64,000 bases of DNA from a virus (lineage: Duplodnaviria; Caudoviricetes): positions 32,001 through 96,000 of the IMG/VR virus record IMGVR_UViG_3300010262_000138, one strand, 5' to 3'. Under the pieces are notes generated by a model. The model saw only the letters and a program-made list of their open reading frames with translations, was not told the DNA's origin and did not search any database. This document shows positions 3,785 to 64,000 of this stretch, one piece after another. Made by a program: the position numbers and the translations under genes. Positions within the stretch are counted from its first letter, which is position 1, and every line of letters begins with the position of its first letter.

Positions 3785-4322
3785 CTACGTTCTCCCTTTT
3801 TACCCTTTTTCGATTTTGACGGTTTTTGGTTACTATGTCGTAGTCGCACCAACCGCCGTCAACCTTTGACCAACATACCCATTTGTAATCAATATTAGGA
3901 TATACATACCAAAACAGCTTACGTTTAAGTTTTGCAACAGAATCCGGCATCCCTTTGATATCAATTACTTCTATATGACCGTCAGAAAACTCCAAACAGA
4001 AGTCAGCGACATACTTAATTGCGATAATTGTCTTACCGTTTCTTGTGAATTTAGGTTGCAGAATATAAGGCTTTTGCAGTTCACATTTAACGATATTTCC
4101 GCTTCCCACTAGGGGCAAAACCACATCCCGGTAGTATTTCATCTCAACCTTGCTGTCAAAAACAATTCCTTCATATGTTCTGGACTCCGGAGAATCCGAC
4201 ACATTATATTTAGATCTTCCTATTATATTCACCTCACTAAGAGGGGAGGGAGCCGCTGGCGCGGCTCCCTCCTTTCTTATTATTCCTTGTTTATCCAGTC
4301 CACAATCTGCGCAAAGCTCCAA
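3771..4322 (-). CDS. DUF1064-family PD-(D/E)XK endonuclease-like protein
   Basis: SKYN...GIVFDSKVE...LQPKF...KYVADF...IDIKG motifs; true start probably near 4223-4226. Confidence 0.75.
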   Translation of the reverse strand: MELCADCGLDKQGIIRKEGAAPAAPSPLSEVNIIGRSKYNVSDSPESRTYEGIVFDSKVEMKYYRDVVLPLVGSGNIVKCELQKPYILQPKFTRNGKTIIAIKYVADFCLEFSDGHIEVIDIKGMPDSVAKLKRKLFWYVYPNIDYKWVCWSKVDGGWCDYDIVTKNRQNRKRVKRENVDGEE

Positions 4323-4645
4323 TCAGGATGCTGTGTTATCTCTTCACTCAATTCCTGCCGCGTTTGAGCGGTAGCGTCACTCAATGACGTTGTGCTCAAA
4401 TAAGACTTAACCTCATCTTCGCTCATATCAGTGCGTTCAGAAATCTGCCTGATAATTTTACCCTCTGACCGGGCTTTTTCTACCTGTTCCATATATTCCT
4501 GATAACATTCAGGACAGCAAGCCATCGAGCGCCAGCTCTCACTTCGGAGACAAAAGCGGCAGGAATAATAATGCTTCCTGCCGCCATCCGATCCGCGATG
4601 ACAGTTCAGATTTTTACAGATTGTGTTTGGCTCTTTCTGCGGCAA
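4280..4645 (-). CDS. Hypothetical Cys-rich (Zn-binding) protein
   Basis: CKNLNC...CRFC...CCPEC; GAGGT SD. Confidence 0.6.
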   Translation of the reverse strand: MPQKEPNTICKNLNCHRGSDGGRKHYYSCRFCLRSESWRSMACCPECYQEYMEQVEKARSEGKIIRQISERTDMSEDEVKSYLSTTSLSDATAQTRQELSEEITQHPDWSFAQIVDWINKE

Positions 4646-21042: not shown

Positions 21043-21816
21043 TCAACTTTTTTCTTTTGCAGTTGACCTTTTGCGTTCCTCGCGCTTCTTCATCTTAAAA
21101 TATCTGCTCCTGCCATCCCCTAAACATTCAGAGCAATAAATGCGGTTACGGTTCTTTGTCTGCGGCATCCAGCGTCCGCACTCACAGCAGCGTGAGAAAT
21201 TTTCTCCCTTAAAAGCCCTGTAAGCATATCCAAGATCCTGAAAATCTTCGTTGTTCAAGTGAATCGCCACATTTCCATCTGGGGAGAATATCAAAGGGCG
21301 GGCGCTTAAATTCATGCATCCATCTCCATACTCTACCATACCCGCCTCGTAGAGCCTTCGCACCATGTCAGTACGTTTCTTTTTGCTTAGAGATAAATTG
21401 GCCCGTTCCGCTACCTCTTTCCAGCGGCTCCCGGCAATAAAACCTTTTGACTTTTCGCTTTTTACCATTTCAAATCTTGCAAGTGCCACACAGGTAAACA
21501 GAAAACATTCCAAGTCCCTGTCTTTCAGGTTGCCTATTATCTCAATTTCTGATGAATAGATTGGTATAGACAAAATCCTATTCAGTGGAAATTTATCTCC
21601 GTTTGATACATATGTAGGGACTTTTTGGAACAACGTAGATCCTTCTGGGAGAGATTTTTCATAAGGCTCTATCAGCTTTCTGACTCGCGCCTCCGCATCG
21701 CTTTTATCCATCCCGCTCTGTACCAGATACCTTGCAGCATACATCGATGCCTCGAATGGGTCTGCTAAAACAGCAGACCCCTCGGTAATATCCTTTGCAT
21801 ACTGATATTCATTCAA
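21043..21816 (-). CDS. Hypothetical protein with HTH-like region and C-terminal Zn ribbon
   Basis: CCECG...YCSEC; coupled to RNA polymerase gene. Confidence 0.6.
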   Translation of the reverse strand: MNEYQYAKDITEGSAVLADPFEASMYAARYLVQSGMDKSDAEARVRKLIEPYEKSLPEGSTLFQKVPTYVSNGDKFPLNRILSIPIYSSEIEIIGNLKDRDLECFLFTCVALARFEMVKSEKSKGFIAGSRWKEVAERANLSLSKKKRTDMVRRLYEAGMVEYGDGCMNLSARPLIFSPDGNVAIHLNNEDFQDLGYAYRAFKGENFSRCCECGRWMPQTKNRNRIYCSECLGDGRSRYFKMKKREERKRSTAKEKS

Positions 21817-22918
21817 AATTACCTTGTAAATTTACCTGACCTCCTACATCAATAGCGCATGGAGAGAATCTTTCACCGGCATACTCAACGGCGCCGTTTT
21901 GATCAATCTCCAAATAACACAGCTTATTTCCGGATTCTTTCAAAAGATTGCGGCAAATTTGTTCAGAGCATACCAACCACGCAAACCGCTTTGACCTTTC
22001 TGATTTATAACACAGGTCAACGAGAATGTTACATAATTCCTCTGCGTTACTGACTGCCTGCCCGCACTCTGCCGTAAAATCTTCAATTATTACTGTCTTT
22101 GCCTTCTTGCTTTCTTCTTCAGATATGCGGTAAAGGCGAGCATTCTTTTCGAACTGGTCCATCTGGGAACAAAAGTCGTGATAGATTTTTTGAATCTTGG
22201 CAAAGGCCCTGCTGCTATACTCTTTATCGCTTTTTAGTAGGGAAGAGTCAAACGGATCTGCCTTATGCTCCCGCGTTTTACGAGCCTCAAAATACGCTTC
22301 CACAATATGACATAAACGGTTCATCGTACCGCCGCAGTCAATCACAGGGTTAAGACTCGCTACCTGGTCTAAGAACTCCCGCATACGCGGGGTAGGGGAC
22401 TCTTTATTTCTCAACTCTTCTATGCTTACACCGAACTCCATTCTGCAACGAGTCTGCGTCCGGTCTATGTAGTTGCGATAACGGCTTAGTTCTTCAGGAT
22501 ACCGATATATCATAAAATATGGTTTACGGTCCGCCACAATGCGTATGTTGATTGGATCGTCTGTCTCTGCGGCGGATTTACGTTTGTACCAATGTTTTGG
22601 CATCCCGTTGGAAATAATTCCTTTAAGTTTGTCGATACAATTCTGTTGTATAAATTGCCCGGAAATAACACGATATTCCAACTCTTCGTATTCTCTTTCT
22701 CCTTTAGAGAATCCCGCCTGAATATCTGTCTGGGTTGTGATTCTATTTGTCACCGAGCCAATATCATCTCCGAACCCCGCGATATTAGCCGCAATGAAAT
22801 CGCTCTCGCTCGGAATCTTTTTAGGTGCCTTCTTCTGTTCGCATTGAATAGGAAGAGTTTCCTTGTGACAACCCACCAGAACGGGATTGTCGGTCAGGAA
22901 GATTAAATCTCCATCTTT
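21809..22918 (-). CDS. YonO-like RNA polymerase, exon 2
   Basis: Frame begins KDGDLIFLTDN right after the intron terminal G; continues DIGSVTNRIT...QQNCIDKLKG. Confidence 0.88.
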   Translation of the reverse strand, partial: KDGDLIFLTDNPVLVGCHKETLPIQCEQKKAPKKIPSESDFIAANIAGFGDDIGSVTNRITTQTDIQAGFSKGEREYEELEYRVISGQFIQQNCIDKLKGIISNGMPKHWYKRKSAAETDDPINIRIVADRKPYFMIYRYPEELSRYRNYIDRTQTRCRMEFGVSIEELRNKESPTPRMREFLDQVASLNPVIDCGGTMNRLCHIVEAYFEARKTREHKADPFDSSLLKSDKEYSSRAFAKIQKIYHDFCSQMDQFEKNARLYRISEEESKKAKTVIIEDFTAECGQAVSNAEELCNILVDLCYKSERSKRFAWLVCSEQICRNLLKESGNKLCYLEIDQNGAVEYAGERFSPCAIDVGGQVNLQGNFE

Positions 22919-23169
22919 CCTTTATACTCCATGTCACCATAGAGAGTAGACTATCTCTTCACCCCATAGGGTGCCCGGCGCTTCCACGCAGGAATTTCAC
23001 CTGACATGTACTTCCTTTCGGAATAGTCGTTACACGTTCTCAAAAGAGCTTCGCACGGTATTGTCTCGGGAAGAGTTCTACCGTTAGCACAGCAAAGCTG
23101 CACACCCCGCAATTACGGGTTCACCGGGTTTTCACCGCGCCGTTTCCGACGCGGGGGACTGCTTTATCA
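22919..23169 (-). ncRNA. Group I intron (251 nt, no ORF) in RNA polymerase gene
   Basis: P1 GGAU/GUCC with U.G at splice site, core GUGUAACGACUA and AAGAGAUAGUCU, terminal G; splicing restores GADKDGD. Confidence 0.92.
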
Positions 23170-24816
23170 ATCCGCTCCATTCAATGCATGGCAGGTCATA
23201 TCATGGCAGTTTAAAAGCGTAACTGTATTCATATACCGATACCAATAGTTTGCCTCATCAGACCTGTGTATCTTCATCTTCCTGATATTATTGTGATTGC
23301 TCATTGGGGCTCGGAAACATACAACATCATCTGTCCCTTTATCGTGCCAATATCTGTTATATAGCTCCCCGGCTTTCAGCAGCCCTGTCACCGGTAATCC
23401 CCAAATGCTCTGGCACAACGCAATTGGATCGCCGCATATTACAGAGAAGTTACCCTCTACCTTAACCTTCCCGAACTTCGACTCATTTACCCTCTTCTTA
23501 ATCAGCGTCTTAATCTGATTGCGTACAAAGGGGTCTCCAAGCATCCTTCGGTCTGCCTGCAGAGCCGTAACCCAATCAAAATCTCCGCTGAATGCATTCT
23601 TCTCTGTAATACCAGTACCCCGTAAAAAGAGAAGGGTACGGTAATAATCGTCACCCATTGCATCGCTGAGTTCGTGCAGGGTAGGGGAGACCAACTCATT
23701 TATCTCATCATCGCTAAGATCATAGCTCTGAATGAACTGATAATTAAGGCGCCGCTCTTTATCAAGCTCTCTCGAAGTCACTTTTGTAGCTGAAAAGGTA
23801 TATCCATTTACACTGCAATTTTGCAGATAATCATCGATATTTGCGTAAGAATCCCATAATTTCAGCATAGAAGCAGTCAAAATCAGCTCAATTTCGTTGA
23901 TTTTGTGCTTATTTCCCCAGATGTCTACCGCCGCATCCTTTTGTGCTATTGATGACGCAAATTCATGAAAATCAAATGTAAATGCCATACCTTTACAAAA
24001 ACTATTGCGCAGACAAAGCCCAGACGGAAGATAGTCAAGCTGAAGCTCTTCCTGCCATCGCATAGCTAGGGCGGGGGACATCACTCCGTATCCATCGCTA
24101 TCAATCAACTCTACGTCTCCGTTTTTGATAACTTCCATACTTGGTTCTCCGGTAGGTGAGTCCTTCAGAAGAATGTAATCCGAGTTGAAGTGAACAACGC
24201 AGTCGTCTACGACAAGAACCCCTTTTGGTATACTGAGAGGGGTTGATGCGGAACAAATCAAGGCGCGATATGCCTCTAGCTTCGCCGGCACAAACTCTTT
24301 ATCCATGCGTCGCCCATTGTCCGCTCGTCGCCGCAGTTCTTCTAAAAGTTCCGCTCCATTCCTTGTATACTCTGAAATAAATACAACGGTTGAGTTTTTT
24401 ACGCCCCCGGTAGTCCCGACAAATCGTTGGTAGGTCATTCCATTGACCTTAAACCCTTTACACGCCCGGAGAAAATCCTTATTGGAATTACACACCAAGC
24501 AGATGTATTCCGGTACGAATTGGATCTCATTCAATGCAGAATACAGCAATTTTATGCGGTTTTCCACCTCTTTTGAACGTTTTTCTCTCCGCAATTCACG
24601 TAATTCTGTGCGAATTTTCTCGAATTTATCCAGATTTTTATGAAGATCAATACCGGCTATCTGCTCGATCATACGGATACAGGTGCTTTCCGCGAGTGAA
24701 ATCACAGCCCCGGACCTCTTGGCGTCGCGCAGCGAGATATTGTAATCCCAGTTGGACTTCCTCAATTCTTCGGTGGATAACTTCAAAACCTGCCTGAGAT
24801 AAGAATACTGCTTTAT
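23170..24816 (-). CDS. YonO-like single-subunit (RdRP-fold) RNA polymerase, exon 1
   Basis: DSDGYG, LRNSFCKG, LNYQFIQ, FRAP, LNGAD motifs; AAGGAGG SD 8 nt before ATA at 24816; spliced product ~918 aa. Confidence 0.88.
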
Positions 24817-24913
24817 GAAATCAGCCTCCTTTTTTGTGCATACAGTAATAGAAAATGAGAATAGACAACCCAAAACGATAATCTATTCGAAGTGGATTAA
24901 GAGTTCCCCAAAA

Positions 24914-55665: not shown

Positions 55666-55740
55666 ACGCCCTTAGCTCAACGGAAGAGCACACTCCTTAT
55701 AAGGGTGAGGTTGTGGGGTCAGAACCCACAAGGCGTACCA
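55666..55740 (+). tRNA. tRNA-Ile(UAU)
   Basis: Cloverleaf; anticodon arm CACTC-CTTATAA-GGGTG; encoded CCA; atypical T loop GTCAGAA and one acceptor mismatch. Confidence 0.8.
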
Positions 55741-59150: not shown

Positions 59151-61105
59151 GATTTATCCTCGTAGACGCTAAAAGAATTGAAGAAGCAAAAGAGAAATTA
59201 GGCGATGAAAACTTTACCTATATGATGCAGTTCCTCGGGATAGAAGATTACGACGCAACAAGAATGAAATGCTGTTGCCCGTTTCATAAAGAAGATACGG
59301 CATCTTTTATCTACAATCCAAAAACGTATAAGGCTCATTGCTTTGGATGCAGCGTCAACGTTGATATCTTGGACGCATATATGAAAGGTAAGAATGGCAC
59401 GTTCGGTGAGGCGGTCCAAAAGCTGTTTGAATTGGCGGATATCCCTTACAGTTTTGGAGAATACGGTGTAAAAACGAAACGGCAATATCGATATCCCAAA
59501 GTCGTGGAATGCTCTGACAAAACACAGATTTACGATTACCTATTGAAACGTAAAATCAGCCCGTCTACCGCAGATTATCTTGATATTCGGCAGGACGAAT
59601 ACGGGAATTTAGCATTTCATTATTACGATCTCAACGATGTCTTGACGATGGTAAAGTACCGCCCGTCCCGAAAAATAGAAAAGGGAGAGAACAAAAACTG
59701 GTGTCAACAGGGTTCTGATACCACGCCGCTGCTTTTTAATATGAACAGAATTAACCCTTCTCAACCTTTGATTATTACCTGCGGGGAGCTGGATTGCGCA
59801 TCTGTAATCGAGTCAGGTCTGACAAATTGCGTAAGCATTCCGCTCGGAGACGGGAATACGAAGTGGATAGAGGAATGCTGGGACTTTCTTGAACAGTTCA
59901 AAGAGATTATTGTCTGCCATGACAATGACAGTTCTGGGGTTAAATTTGTAAAAGAAGTAATCCCAAGACTCGGTTCTTGGCGTTGTAAGGTGGCGAATTG
60001 CCCTGACTTTGTTCTTACAAAATCAGGCGAGAAGAGAGCGATTAAGGACATAAATGAGGTTTTATACTTTTATGGAAAAGAAAAAGTAGTCGATATCATT
60101 TTAAATTCCACCGACAGCCCGGTGCCATCTGTGCAGGATTTTTCAAATATCCCTGATAAGGAATTTTCCGATATGGAAGGGATTCGGACGGGGATAGAAT
60201 CTTTGGATAAAGAAATCATGTGCCTGCCATTCGGGAGCTTGACGATTGTTTCCGGAGCTCCGGGAGCCGGTAAAACCTCTCTCCTTTATGGATTGGTATG
60301 CCAAGCGCTGGAACAGGGTTCTAATGCATGGGTATTCTCTCGTGAGCTTCCCGACTACACTACAAAGGGCTGGATTAACTACATGCTGGCTGGGCCGCGC
60401 AATGTAAGCGAATACCACAATTCTCAGGGCGCCAAATATTATAAGGTAAATCCCGAAGCAAAGAAAGCGATTTCTGCTTATTACAAAGGCCGTCTCTATG
60501 TGTACCGGGATGATTTCGGATGTAAAGCTCAAGAGATTTTTTCTTCCATGACTGATTCGGTGCGCAAATACGGCACGAGGTTTTTGTTGATCGACTCGCT
60601 GATGATGGTAGATCTGGAATCAAACGAGAATAACAAGTTTGAAAAGCAGACCGAGTTTATCAACCAGTTAATCCAGTTCGCGCTGAGATATAATGTGGCA
60701 ATCGTATTGGTTTGCCATCCCAGAAAGCTGCAGTTTGGGCAAAGTGAAGTTGGAATGTACGATATTGCCGGCAGCTCTAACCTCAGCAACCTGAGCCATC
60801 GGGCAATCGGCTTGCGAAGGGTTGGCAAAAAGGAGCGAATGGGGGAGAGAAACGCCAGGGATACGGGCTGGATTATTCCGCCCTGCCAATACCATTGTAT
60901 GCTGAATATTATCAAAGATCGTTTCCGGGGAAGAGCTGGTGCGGAATTCGGCTTATATTACGATGAGGCCAGCCGAAGGTTCTTTTCCAATCCTTCAGAG
61001 TATGACTTCAAATATTCTTGGGATCAAAACATTTATCAGGACGAGCTTACATACCCGATTGTAGATATGGAAGAAGAGGTTTTAGGGACAATCAGGGAGG
61101 GATGA
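59147..61105 (+). CDS. Primase-helicase (Zn finger + TOPRIM + SF4 helicase)
   Basis: CPFH..HCFGC, GELD, DND..G, KDINE, GAPGAGKT, IDSLM, VCHPRK. Confidence 0.9.
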   Translation: MRFILVDAKRIEEAKEKLGDENFTYMMQFLGIEDYDATRMKCCCPFHKEDTASFIYNPKTYKAHCFGCSVNVDILDAYMKGKNGTFGEAVQKLFELADIPYSFGEYGVKTKRQYRYPKVVECSDKTQIYDYLLKRKISPSTADYLDIRQDEYGNLAFHYYDLNDVLTMVKYRPSRKIEKGENKNWCQQGSDTTPLLFNMNRINPSQPLIITCGELDCASVIESGLTNCVSIPLGDGNTKWIEECWDFLEQFKEIIVCHDNDSSGVKFVKEVIPRLGSWRCKVANCPDFVLTKSGEKRAIKDINEVLYFYGKEKVVDIILNSTDSPVPSVQDFSNIPDKEFSDMEGIRTGIESLDKEIMCLPFGSLTIVSGAPGAGKTSLLYGLVCQALEQGSNAWVFSRELPDYTTKGWINYMLAGPRNVSEYHNSQGAKYYKVNPEAKKAISAYYKGRLYVYRDDFGCKAQEIFSSMTDSVRKYGTRFLLIDSLMMVDLESNENNKFEKQTEFINQLIQFALRYNVAIVLVCHPRKLQFGQSEVGMYDIAGSSNLSNLSHRAIGLRRVGKKERMGERNARDTGWIIPPCQYHCMLNIIKDRFRGRAGAEFGLYYDEASRRFFSNPSEYDFKYSWDQNIYQDELTYPIVDMEEEVLGTIREG

Positions 61106-63283
61106 ACATTCCAAATTATGTCGCATATCACGTCCATACAGATCATTCTCTGCTCGACAGCGCGACCAAATATCAGCAGTACATTGAAGAAGCCGTAAAG
61201 AACGAGCAGAGCGCAATTGCTTTTACGGAACATGGCAATCTCTACAATTGGATTGCAAAAAAGAAGGCTTGCGAAGCATCCGGGTTAAAATATATCCATG
61301 GAGTCGAGTGTTACCTGACTGAAAAACTCTTCCCAAAGGAGAGGGATAACTACCATACAATTCTTCTGGCAAAGGACGCCAACGGGGTTGAAGAAATTAA
61401 CTCACTCGTCAGCCGCTCCGAGACGGAAGATCACAAATACTATAAGCCGCGCATTTCGTTTGATGAGTTTCTTGGGATTAGCGACCATGTTATTAAAATC
61501 AGCGCCTGCCTTGCGTCTCCGTTGAATCGGCTTGACATCAGCAATCCGTATTATGAAAAACTGGCGCAGCACTACGATTATTTTGAAATACAGCCACATA
61601 ATCACCCCGATCAAATCAGGTTCAACATTCACCTCGCAGAGCTGTCCCGTAAACATCACAAACCTTTGATTGCGGGAACCGATACGCACAGCTTGAATCA
61701 GTATAAAGCAGAATGCCGAAGTATCCTTCAGTCCGCAAAGCATATTGAGTTCAGCGACGAAGACGCATTTGACTTAACCTATAAATCCTACGATGAGTTA
61801 TGTGAGATGTTCCGTATTCAAAATGCGATTCCGGAAAATATCTGGAAAGAAGCGATTGAGAATACAAACCGTATGGCCGACAGCGTAGAGAAGTTTGAGC
61901 TTGATGAAACCTTTAAATATCCGCATCTATATGGAGAACGGGACTCTGAAATTTACGACAGTAACCTGTGGAACAGTTTTCAGAAAAAGATTGACGAAAA
62001 TATCATTCCGCAGGGAGAAGCAGAGCGGTACAGAGAGCAGCTTGAAGAAGAAACCAGAGTATTCGACAAGCTCGGAATGAAGGGCTTCATGCTGTCCATG
62101 TCCGAGTTTGTGAGGTGGTGTAAGGGAAATAATATCCCGGTTGGTCCGGGAAGAGGCTCTGTTGCTGGAAGCCGGGTTGCATACGTCACCGATATTACCG
62201 ACGTTGATCCCGCCCGATGGGGAACGGTATTTTCCCGGTTCTGCAACGAAGACAGGCGAGAAATTGGCGATATTGATATTGACCTTGCGCCGGATGATCG
62301 GGAGCTTCTTTATAACTATATCATCGGCCGATTTGGAGAACAGTACACAGCCTACATTTTGGCGCTAGGCACAATCAGCTCTAAGGGGACTATAGATGAA
62401 ATTGGACGGGCTTTAGACCTGAGATGGAAAAAACAGCATAAGGACGATGAAAGGTCGCCCTACACTCTTGATGCTGTAGCGGGAATAAAGAAAGTATTTG
62501 AGGCGGGTCCTGATAAAGCCAGAACTTTATTCCCAGATTTATTTTACTACTATGACGGTCTGATTGACACAATCATTTCACAATCGATGCATCCGGCGGG
62601 CATTGTGGTAAGTCCCGTAACCCTTCCTGACCATTATGGAACGTTTGTCAGAGAAGGAAAGACGATACTGCAAATTGATATGGACTGCGTACATGAGGTC
62701 AGCCTTGTCAAGTATGACATTCTGGGGTTGAAAAACATCCAGATACTCAAAGATGCCTATGAGCTGGCTGGAATTCCATATCCAAGGATGCACGAGATTG
62801 ACTGGAATGACGAGGCGGTTTGGGAAGATATCAAAAGGTCGCCGGTAGGCATATTCCAATTTGAGTCAGATTATTCGCATTCCATGCTCAGACAGTATAA
62901 TCCCAAATCCATTTATGATATGTCGTTGGTGACGGCGGCAATCCGCCCCTCCGGGTCTTCATACCGCGATGAGCTGATGAAGCACATACCGCATAAGAAC
63001 CCGTCCCCAATTATTGATAATCTACTCGCCGATAATAACGGATATTTGATTTATCAAGAGGATACAATTAAGTTTCTTCAGCAGATATGCGGATTGTCAG
63101 GAAGCGCCGCCGATAATGTCAGAAGGGCCATCGGCCGGAAACAAGAAGACAGAATTAACGCCGCGTTGCCGCTAATCTTAGAAGGTTATTGCAGTAAATC
63201 CCCTAAGCCGCGAGAAGAGGCAGAAGCGGAAGCAAAAGAATTTCTTCAGATTATAGAAGATTCAAGCAACTACCAATTTGGGT
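61102..63283 (+). CDS. dnaE: DNA polymerase III alpha subunit, exon 1
   Basis: HVHT..SLLD PHP, GPGRGSVAGS, DIDID, HPAG, KYDILGL, IFQFES, YQED. Confidence 0.93.
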
Positions 63284-63555
63284 GAATGGTTTGCCCATCC
63301 TTGTGAATACGGTCAACTAAACCGAGAGGTTAAGGTGGTAAGAGAGCCTAAGTCCTTATATTGGATATGGTAATACCGTGCCAAGCCCTAAACAGGGAAG
63401 GTGTAACGACTATCGAAAGCACACGAGCCTCAGAAATGATACACGTGGAAGCAAGTAGAGTAGGCCGCAAGGCCGAAGCGCAAGGGGAGAATTGTGCGGT
63501 CACAGCGCTGTTCTCCAAGATATAGTCTGTACCATTCGAAAGAATGGATTTAGCG
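63284..63555 (+). ncRNA. Group I intron (272 nt, no homing endonuclease) in dnaE
   Basis: P1 UGGGU/GCCCA with U.G; GUGUAACGACUA and AAGAUAUAGUCU core; terminal G; splicing gives YQFGYNHSIAY. Confidence 0.92.
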
Positions 63556-64000
63556 ATAATCATTCCATTGCCTACTGCATGATCGGATATCAATGCGCCT
63601 TCTTACGCTATTATCATCCCTATGAATTCGTCACAGCATATCTCAACAACGCCGCAAACTACGACGATATCAGAAACGGCAGTGATTTGGCGCAGGAATA
63701 TGGGATTCGAATCAGCGCTCCCAAGTTTGGTCTTTCAAAAGATACCTACATATTTGACCGGGAGCAAAACGTAATTGCAAAAGGCGTCGCGTCTATCAAG
63801 TACCTGAACACCACAGTCGCAAATGAGCTGTATGAGTTAAGCAAAGAAGTTGACTATACCTATTTTACCGACCTGTTGCTTGACCTGATGCAGAAAACCA
63901 GCATTGACTCACGGCAGCTTGATCTTTTGATTAAAATAGACTTCTTTGACCGGTTCGGAAATGTACCAACGCTGAGTAAAATCAGGGGCGTTTTTGATTT
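63556..64000 (+). CDS. dnaE: DNA polymerase III alpha subunit, exon 2 (runs off right edge)
   Basis: NHSIAYCMIGYQCAFLRYYHPYEF...KGVASIKYL open frame. Confidence 0.9.

Follow-up and report, generated by a model that had tools for sequence, protein, structure and literature searches.

The YonO-like RNA polymerase gene in the window (the whole 64,000-nucleotide stretch of phage DNA analysed here) is interrupted within its catalytic DxDGD motif by a 251-nt insert at 22919..23169. This insert is most probably an IA-type group I intron, compact and ORF-less, self-splicing and able to rebuild the polymerase upon its removal (probability about 0.88). The initial annotation had proposed that a group I intron breaks the DxDGD motif of a YonO-like polymerase, and the fold of the insert, covariation among its relatives, uninterrupted homologs and endonuclease-bearing relatives all agree with that proposal.

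An interrupted catalytic motif

The polymerase gene lies on the minus strand, where both exons and the insert are read:

23170..24873 (-), exon 1 of the YonO-like RNA polymerase (ORF list, PF05183, phrog_25339, phrog_8308 positions 56-550, BLASTP against YonO)
22919..23169 (-), insert, ORF-less group I intron of 251 nt (RF00028, fold, covariation)
21809..22918 (-), exon 2 (translation, phrog_35857, phrog_8308 positions 552-824, uninterrupted homologs)

Exon 1 ends in ...CHALNGAD (GCG GAT), its final residue being the first aspartate of the catalytic triad, and TGA TAA stands directly next to it (23169-23164). The insert accordingly opens with UGA UAA, and it closes with ...AAAGG, its last base, G22919, being the omega G. 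Translation from 22918 on the minus strand (KDGDLIFLTDNPVL... / KDGDLIFLTDNPVLVG...) starts KDGDLIF and runs for 369 aa to a stop at 21809, KDGD supplying the second and third aspartates of the triad. Neither a start codon nor a ribosome-binding site is present at KDGD, and the earliest listed start is GTG 22876, 14 codons inside the exon. An in-frame join that leaves both an exon-final U and an intron-final G is offered by a single pair of cut points, U23170 and G22919; the join is in phase 0, reads GCGGAU-AAAGAU and encodes NGADKDGD, and the DxDGD triad is complete only across it (D/KDGD, the slash marking the intron position here and below). The initial annotation had exon 1 ending LNGAD, an intron running from TGA to a final G and exon 2 starting KDGDLIF, and its coordinates and description are correct for the minus strand. 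The start codon of exon 1 is uncertain, with TTG 24873 giving 568 aa and TTG 24786 giving 539 aa, the latter in agreement with homologs of 540 aa. Depending on this choice the joined protein measures 908-937 aa, a range that includes the enzyme of about 918 aa expected earlier.

The encoded polymerase

Exon 1 matches the Pfam family PF05183 (RdRP) with E 2.2e-10 and 40.3 bits, against a cut-off of 23.8, and it aligns with residues 132-494 of SPbeta YonO (BLASTP 1e-21, 26% identity over the alignable part); tblastn additionally gave matches to yonO in SPbeta-like phages. The corresponding YonO motif, FDNDGD, sits about 40 residues beyond the region aligned with exon 1. Exon 2 alone has no significant pairwise similarity to YonO and is linked to it through profiles and uninterrupted homologs. 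The pattern D-x-D-x-D is invariant in 20 full-length homologs. Replacement of the G of DxDGD was seen in Bacillus phage BUCT082 (L003), which reads DFDYD, and in L198, L206, P0037, P0038, P0078 and P0085, whose triads are among DKDSD, DFDSD and DKDAD; the three aspartates are always retained.

The fold was tested on an uninterrupted homolog, P0010, which is 63% identical to exon 1 and stands in for the window protein (AlphaFold pLDDT 84.7). Foldseek matched this model to QDE-1 and plant RDR2 (E about 1e-15, TM about 0.5) and next to phage P74 gp62 (8f5m), P32 gp64 (8f72) and the crAss-like virion polymerase, while a family-profile sequence search of the PDB returned no match. With its fold read from the homolog model, the encoded protein is a predicted YonO-type two-barrel RNA polymerase. 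In this it resembles SPbeta YonO, a single-chain two-barrel RNA polymerase with a DxDGD triad (Forrest et al., 2017, PMC5467207). The Asp triad of YonO is essential, the 3D to 3N mutation killing the enzyme, and YonO transcribes the SPbeta late operon (PMC5467207). By analogy with this 26% identical relative, the window polymerase may transcribe the late genes of its own phage.

Unlike the window gene, yonO is uninterrupted, encodes 839 aa and has a zinc ribbon fused at the C-terminus. Directly after the window polymerase lies a gene at 21043..21816 (-), which shares 8 nt with the 3' end of exon 2. The C-terminal CxxC...CxxC of its product resembles the C-terminal zinc ribbon of YonO (residues 786-819, BLASTP E 8e-4), and this gene probably encodes a separate polymerase module, as the YonO C-terminal module seems to be a gene of its own in this clade. 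A separate gene likewise lies downstream of the polymerase in phage c-st (CST177, 'YonO-homolog (C-ter only)'), PMBT24 and BUCT082.

Fold of the insert

The Rfam model RF00028 (Intron_gpI) aligns to the insert end to end (37.4 bits, E 1e-7 in a region search) and places the conserved elements ACGACUA and AGAUAGUCU. The score of 37.4 bits compares with a gathering score of 50, a curation cut-off that represents no structural feature, and with 32-47 bits for the members of the intron's own lineage. The minimum free energy (MFE) fold of the insert is more stable than those of 200 out of 200 shuffles (z -3.45) and contains P1, P2, P3, P4-P6, P7.1, P7.2, P8 and P9. From the 5' end, the helices are as follows:

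23156..23173 (-), P1, 6 bp: exon GGAU (23173-23170) and intron UG paired with the internal guide CAGUCC (23161-23156)
23135..23154 (-), P2 hairpin, 8 bp, GAAA loop (fold; 6 of 8 pairs with two-sided changes among relatives)
22974..23128 (-), P3: 5' strand CCCGGUG 23128-23122, 3' strand CGCCGGG 22980-22974
23119-23106 and 23101-23089 (-), P3.1 and P3.2, extra hairpins inside P3 and before P4 (fold and relatives)
23084-23079 with 23060-23055 (-), P4 (fold)
23075-23065 (-), P5 (fold)
23048-23039 (-), P6, short, 3 bp (fold)
22949..23028 (-), P7, the guanosine-binding helix: GACUA 23028-23024 with UAGUC 22953-22949
23023-23012 (-), P7.1, UUCC-GAAA-GGAA (fold)
23003-22989 (-), P7.2, CAGG...CCUG (fold; covaries)
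22973-22960 (-), P8, between the strands of P7 (fold)
22927..22944 (-), P9 hairpin, 7 bp, GUGA loop, followed by UAUAAAG and the omega G (fold and relatives)

By sequence and fold, U23170.G is the wobble pair of P1 at the 5' splice site. P3 and P7 form a pseudoknot, the 5' strand of P7 being enclosed by P3. The core from P3 to P9, with this pseudoknot and P7, is found both in the full-length alignment to the model and in the covariation described below, and every core helix, P7 included, is intact and canonical in the window intron. The window intron has both P7.1 and P7.2, which lie between P7 and the second strand of P3. A pair of additional helices in this position is said to be how Michel and Westhof defined subgroup IA in 1990, and P7.1 and P7.2 mark the IA type of the window intron, a classification judged on these two helices.

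No P10 with the 3' exon AAAGAU was seen on inspection by eye, whereas the related intron of L080 has AUCUUU/AAAGAU; P10 is not universal among group I introns. At 251 nt, against 294-308 nt elsewhere, the window intron is the shortest of its lineage; it lacks the P7.1 extension, and its P6 is truncated to 3 bp. It contains no homing endonuclease gene, the sole internal ORF (22951..23112, 53 aa) having no Pfam match, and because of this the window copy is an ORF-less derivative or relative that is not itself homing-competent. Among public sequencing runs, no RNA run was found to contain the sequence. In four runs compared with it, two 151-nt contigs of one untyped run show the unspliced form at the junctions, which has no bearing on expression or splicing, and the matches besides these amount to a 42-nt fragment from another organism.

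Covariation among related introns

Six ORF-less introns (those of the window, L080, L211, L004, L084 and L232) were aligned together with 8-nt exon flanks, and their RNAalifold consensus spans P2-P9, with two-sided changes in 36 of 66 pairs. In this consensus the exon GGAU was paired to the downstream half of P7, an artefact of RNAalifold in place of which the P7 pseudoknot was put in. With that helix added, 96.0% of cells in the six introns are paired, as against 80.9% in shuffles (0 of 500 shuffles as high), and controls with slid partners give 34-46%.

A wider alignment of 23 introns took in endonuclease-bearing copies and introns from a second site in the gene. Here P3, P3.1, P3.2, P4 and P7.2 have canonical pairs of several types, almost every one of them kept in 19-23 of the 23 introns, and P8 is likewise canonical. 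The GACUA/UAGUC of P7 is invariant in the closest relatives, and three of the 23 introns (L165, L199 and L200, all at the second site) have GAGCA/UGCUC instead, which represents two compensatory swaps in the catalytic core. The MAFFT alignment is unreliable for the c-st intron and for the P1, P5, P6 and P7.1 regions; the 23-sequence counts for P5 and P6 were ignored, and P1 was compared by eye, sequence by sequence, because of this unreliability. The two extra hairpins between P3 and P4 (window 23089..23119 (-)) occur in 23 of 23 introns of the lineage, and both are supported by covariation. The literature searched yielded no name for such hairpins, and they may be a hallmark of this clade of gut-phage introns.

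Interrupted and uninterrupted homologs

A single-protein scan of IMG/VR found one locus only, and a query made from an alignment of homologs was used instead. It gave 240 loci from IMG/VR, metagenomes and GTDB genomes, which together with annotated phage records made 244 classified loci; homologs number more than 3,400 overall. At both intron sites the gene is continuous in 215 of these 244, while an insert in the Asp motif is present in 12 (about 5%). Among the best 120 protein clusters, 79 are full length with NG(A/M/C)D(K/F)DGD unbroken, 26 end at NG(x)D or immediately beyond it, and the other 15 about 95 residues further on. The polymerase of Enterocloster phage PMBT24, for example, reads NGCDFDGD without interruption, and the profile phrog_8308 covers the two exons consecutively, at 56-550 and 552-824. 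Alignment to intronless homologs had been put forward as a check on the intron and bears it out, both in the 79 of 120 best clusters and in the 215 of 244 loci that are unbroken; the GADKDGD that intron removal was expected to rebuild is found as NGADKDGD across the join in dozens of uninterrupted homologs.

The interrupted form is not confined to the window. The closest interrupted homologs, known from protein sequence, are P0004 (97% identity), P0007, P0020, P0005 and P0011, and the P0004 cluster, with 40 member sequences, likewise terminates at NGAD. Relatives at this level of 97% come from gut metagenomes. Homologs naturally split at this point had been named as the observation that would count against an intron. 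None is split by a bare break: each split homolog bears a group I-like insert of 261-1065 nt, and the intron reading is favoured because every homolog split here holds such an insert. The PHROG collection has separate families of 'unknown function' for the two halves, phrog_25339 for exon 1 and phrog_35857 for exon 2. The separate families are artefacts of annotation, produced by introns that went unrecognised in several phage genomes on deposit.

Two hot spots and three registers

The Asp-motif introns occupy three registers (-5, 0 and +6 nt) within 11 nt:

Site A, D/xDGD, as in the window: L004, L080, L211, L026, L125
Site B, DxD/GD, 6 nt downstream: phage c-st, L084, L232, L244, L198, L206
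Site C, NG-U/GU-GAC, 5 nt upstream: L161

All 13 Asp-motif introns (that of the window and the 12 others) have an exon-final U and an intron-final G, and each allows a P1 that includes a U.G pair. Eleven of the 13 follow the exon sequence GGAU, facing the guide GUCC, and L026 has the exon sequence CGAU with the guide GUCG, a compensatory change. The intron of L161 belongs to another lineage (94.4 bits with RF00028). At Site A, L026 and L125 contain a version of about 1 kb carrying a NUMOD4+HNH endonuclease gene, and the introns of L244 and L198 also encode NUMOD4+HNH.

A second hot spot, QQNxI/D, lies about 95 codons after the Asp motif, where group I-like inserts of 289-1169 nt were found at 16 loci (L045, L061, L080, L084, L132, L136, L142, L160, L161, L165, L167, L177, L199, L200, L222 and L232). 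Its occupants belong to the lineage of the window intron or to an L161-like lineage, and several carry GIY-YIG endonuclease genes. The window gene is uninterrupted at the equivalent position, about 22630-22640 (FIQQNCIDKLKG). The window intron belongs to a mobile family whose members have settled repeatedly in this polymerase gene family, both in the Asp motif and at the second site.

In an IQ-TREE phylogeny computed without the P1 columns, the Site B intron of L084 nests among Site A introns with support of 98/99, and a single Site A clade is rejected by an AU test (p = 0.005) whose groups were named after a FastTree tree had already been inspected. The tree supports apparent switching of introns between sites. 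A 6-nt slide of both splice sites was considered as the origin of the Site B intron of L084 and rejected because the upstream 3' position that it would need lacks a G. Introns of the lineage in question mostly land after ...GAU, which pairs with the 4-5 nt guide GUC(C/G). It is conceivable, if on the doubtful side, that one lineage hopped between the D1 and D2 positions, 6 nt apart, and the site about 95 codons away by RNA-guided reverse splicing and not by endonuclease homing.

Proposed splicing and its alternatives

From the anatomy, the conserved fold and the restored reading frame, we infer that the intron splices and that it does so independently of helpers. The polymerase gene would be transcribed into one pre-mRNA, in which the intron would fold and the guide CAGUCC would form P1 with the exon GGAU and intron bases 1 and 2. 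A free guanosine docked at P7 would then attack 3' of U23170, the released exon end would attack 3' of the terminal G22919, and the exons would be ligated as GCGGAU-AAAGAU. The spliced mRNA would encode a single chain of about 910-940 aa with the Asp triad intact in GADKDGD. On unspliced RNA, ribosomes would halt at the UGA of intron bases 1-3, and the product, a fragment with one of the three aspartates, would be expected to be inactive. Since the Asp triad is divided between the two exons, an active enzyme should require splicing. At some point the window copy would have lost its homing endonuclease gene, unless it never possessed one.

The initial annotation had gone a step further and seen in this dependence a control point, with regulated splicing timing or gating late transcription. 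The idea draws on the enzyme's requirement for splicing and on the UGA at intron position 1 that halts ribosomes, and nothing direct supports it. Against it, 215 of 244 loci are free of introns at both sites, and others have them in different registers or at the second site only; this patchy distribution and the endonuclease genes in relatives fit a selfish element and not a conserved regulator. Regulation through splicing is therefore improbable and this part of the earlier proposal is not upheld. The intron is best seen as a tolerated genetic parasite rendered harmless by splicing, rather than as a regulator, a reading that fits its patchy, multi-site and endonuclease-associated distribution.

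It is quite improbable that the insert is an intron by descent only, with splicing dead or dependent on helpers and the polymerase gene dead or conditionally expressed. The window copy is the most reduced of its lineage (251 nt versus 294-308 nt, with P6 cut and no P7.1 extension), P10 is not evident, the Rfam score lies below the gathering threshold, and the virus record is rated 67% complete, all of which would suit such decay. However, the core helices are intact and canonical and both splice-site rules hold, the long open frames of the two exons retain family-invariant residues, and the interrupted allele recurs in the 40-member cluster at 97% identity.

That the gene is naturally split, with two polypeptides assembling and the 251 nt serving as a mere spacer, is hardly credible: automatic annotation does separate the halves (CST179/CST178 in c-st; phrog_25339 and phrog_35857), and jumbo phages offer known cases of split RNA polymerase subunits (PMC7598289), but the break parts the first aspartate from the second within a five-residue metal-binding loop, exon 2 lacks both a start codon and a ribosome-binding site at KDGD, and the supposed spacer is a conserved ribozyme fold with covariation. 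An intein was ruled out by the stop codon with which the insert opens, a group II intron and an IS element by the lack of any such match and of an ORF, and programmed frameshifting or readthrough by two stops followed by 251 nt of ribozyme fold.

Relation to known phage introns

The conserved motifs of essential genes are classic sites of group I introns in phages (PMC3984707, PMC11878797), and introns in phage multisubunit RNA polymerase genes are known; the YonO-like host gene is an addition to this list. In phage PhiPA3, the gene for an RNA polymerase beta-like subunit contains a group I intron with the HNH endonuclease gp210 (Birkholz et al., 2024, PMC11620839), and phage 201phi2-1 has a 'mobile intron' between gp273 and gp274 (PMC2919709). 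As in those phages, a group I intron here breaks into a conserved portion of an RNA polymerase gene belonging to the phage itself, and HNH endonuclease genes occur in relatives of the window intron as well. Unlike the multisubunit enzymes of these jumbo Pseudomonas phages, the window polymerase is a single-chain, YonO/RdRP-like protein of a gut Bacillota phage, and the window intron cuts the Asp triad itself and carries no endonuclease gene.

The classic IA-type phage introns include those of T4 td, nrdB and sunY, Twort orf142, and the DNA polymerase genes of SPO1 and Bastille (PMC3984707; Bastillevirinae, PMC11878797). The window intron shares with them its compactness, P7.1/P7.2, the U.G pair in P1 and the terminal G, as well as its position in the catalytic motif of an essential gene with a stop right at the start of the intron. 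It differs from them in its host gene and in the extra hairpins between P3 and P4 found in 23 of 23 lineage members. By BLASTN, the half from P4 to P9 matches unannotated regions of Klebsiella, Bacillus, Vibrio and Enterococcus phages at about 70-76% identity.

The closest named phage homolog is CST179/CST178 of Clostridium botulinum phage c-st (AP008983; L001), with 40.7% identity. As in the window, the c-st polymerase gene is interrupted in the Asp motif, here by a 317-nt insert (4166..4482) with a P1 in which GGAU/AAA faces UUUGUCC. RF00028 matches this insert with 25.4 bits (E 1.6e-4) when the 461-nt region is searched alone, and missed it when the whole loci L001-L003 were searched at E 0.1. 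Unlike that of the window, the c-st intron lies 6 nt further downstream, at NGMDMD/GDAV (DMD/GD). The c-st record annotates two unrelated proteins and no intron; CST179 and CST178 are the two exons of one YonO-like polymerase, with an unannotated group I intron between them. Literature searches that combined YonO with intron or group I intron, and two-barrel polymerase with intron, found no description of such an arrangement.

While the intron reveals no new mechanism and gives no sign of phage regulation through it, its recognition has practical consequences. In gut Bacillota phages, annotation often turns a YonO-type polymerase gene into two hypothetical proteins that are treated as unrelated; once the intron is recognised, a single enzyme of about 900 aa is regained and a polymerase is flagged in phages where the gene looks broken. 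The intron also contributes a new host gene to the essential phage genes that group I introns colonise at their most conserved codons. With three registers, a second hot spot, and members with HNH, GIY-YIG or no endonuclease, the family forms a dense natural series for studying how such introns choose and change their sites.

Other features of the window

A second match to the group I intron model (RF00028, 42.2 bits) lies at 63234..63548 (+), within 61018..64000. The gene interrupted is one for DNA polymerase III alpha (DnaE-like), the first exon ending ...SSNYQFG and the reading frame resuming with ...GFSDNHSIAY..., the region of the conserved motif. A tRNA gene was also found:

55666..55737 (+), tRNA gene (Rfam tRNA, 51.1 bits)
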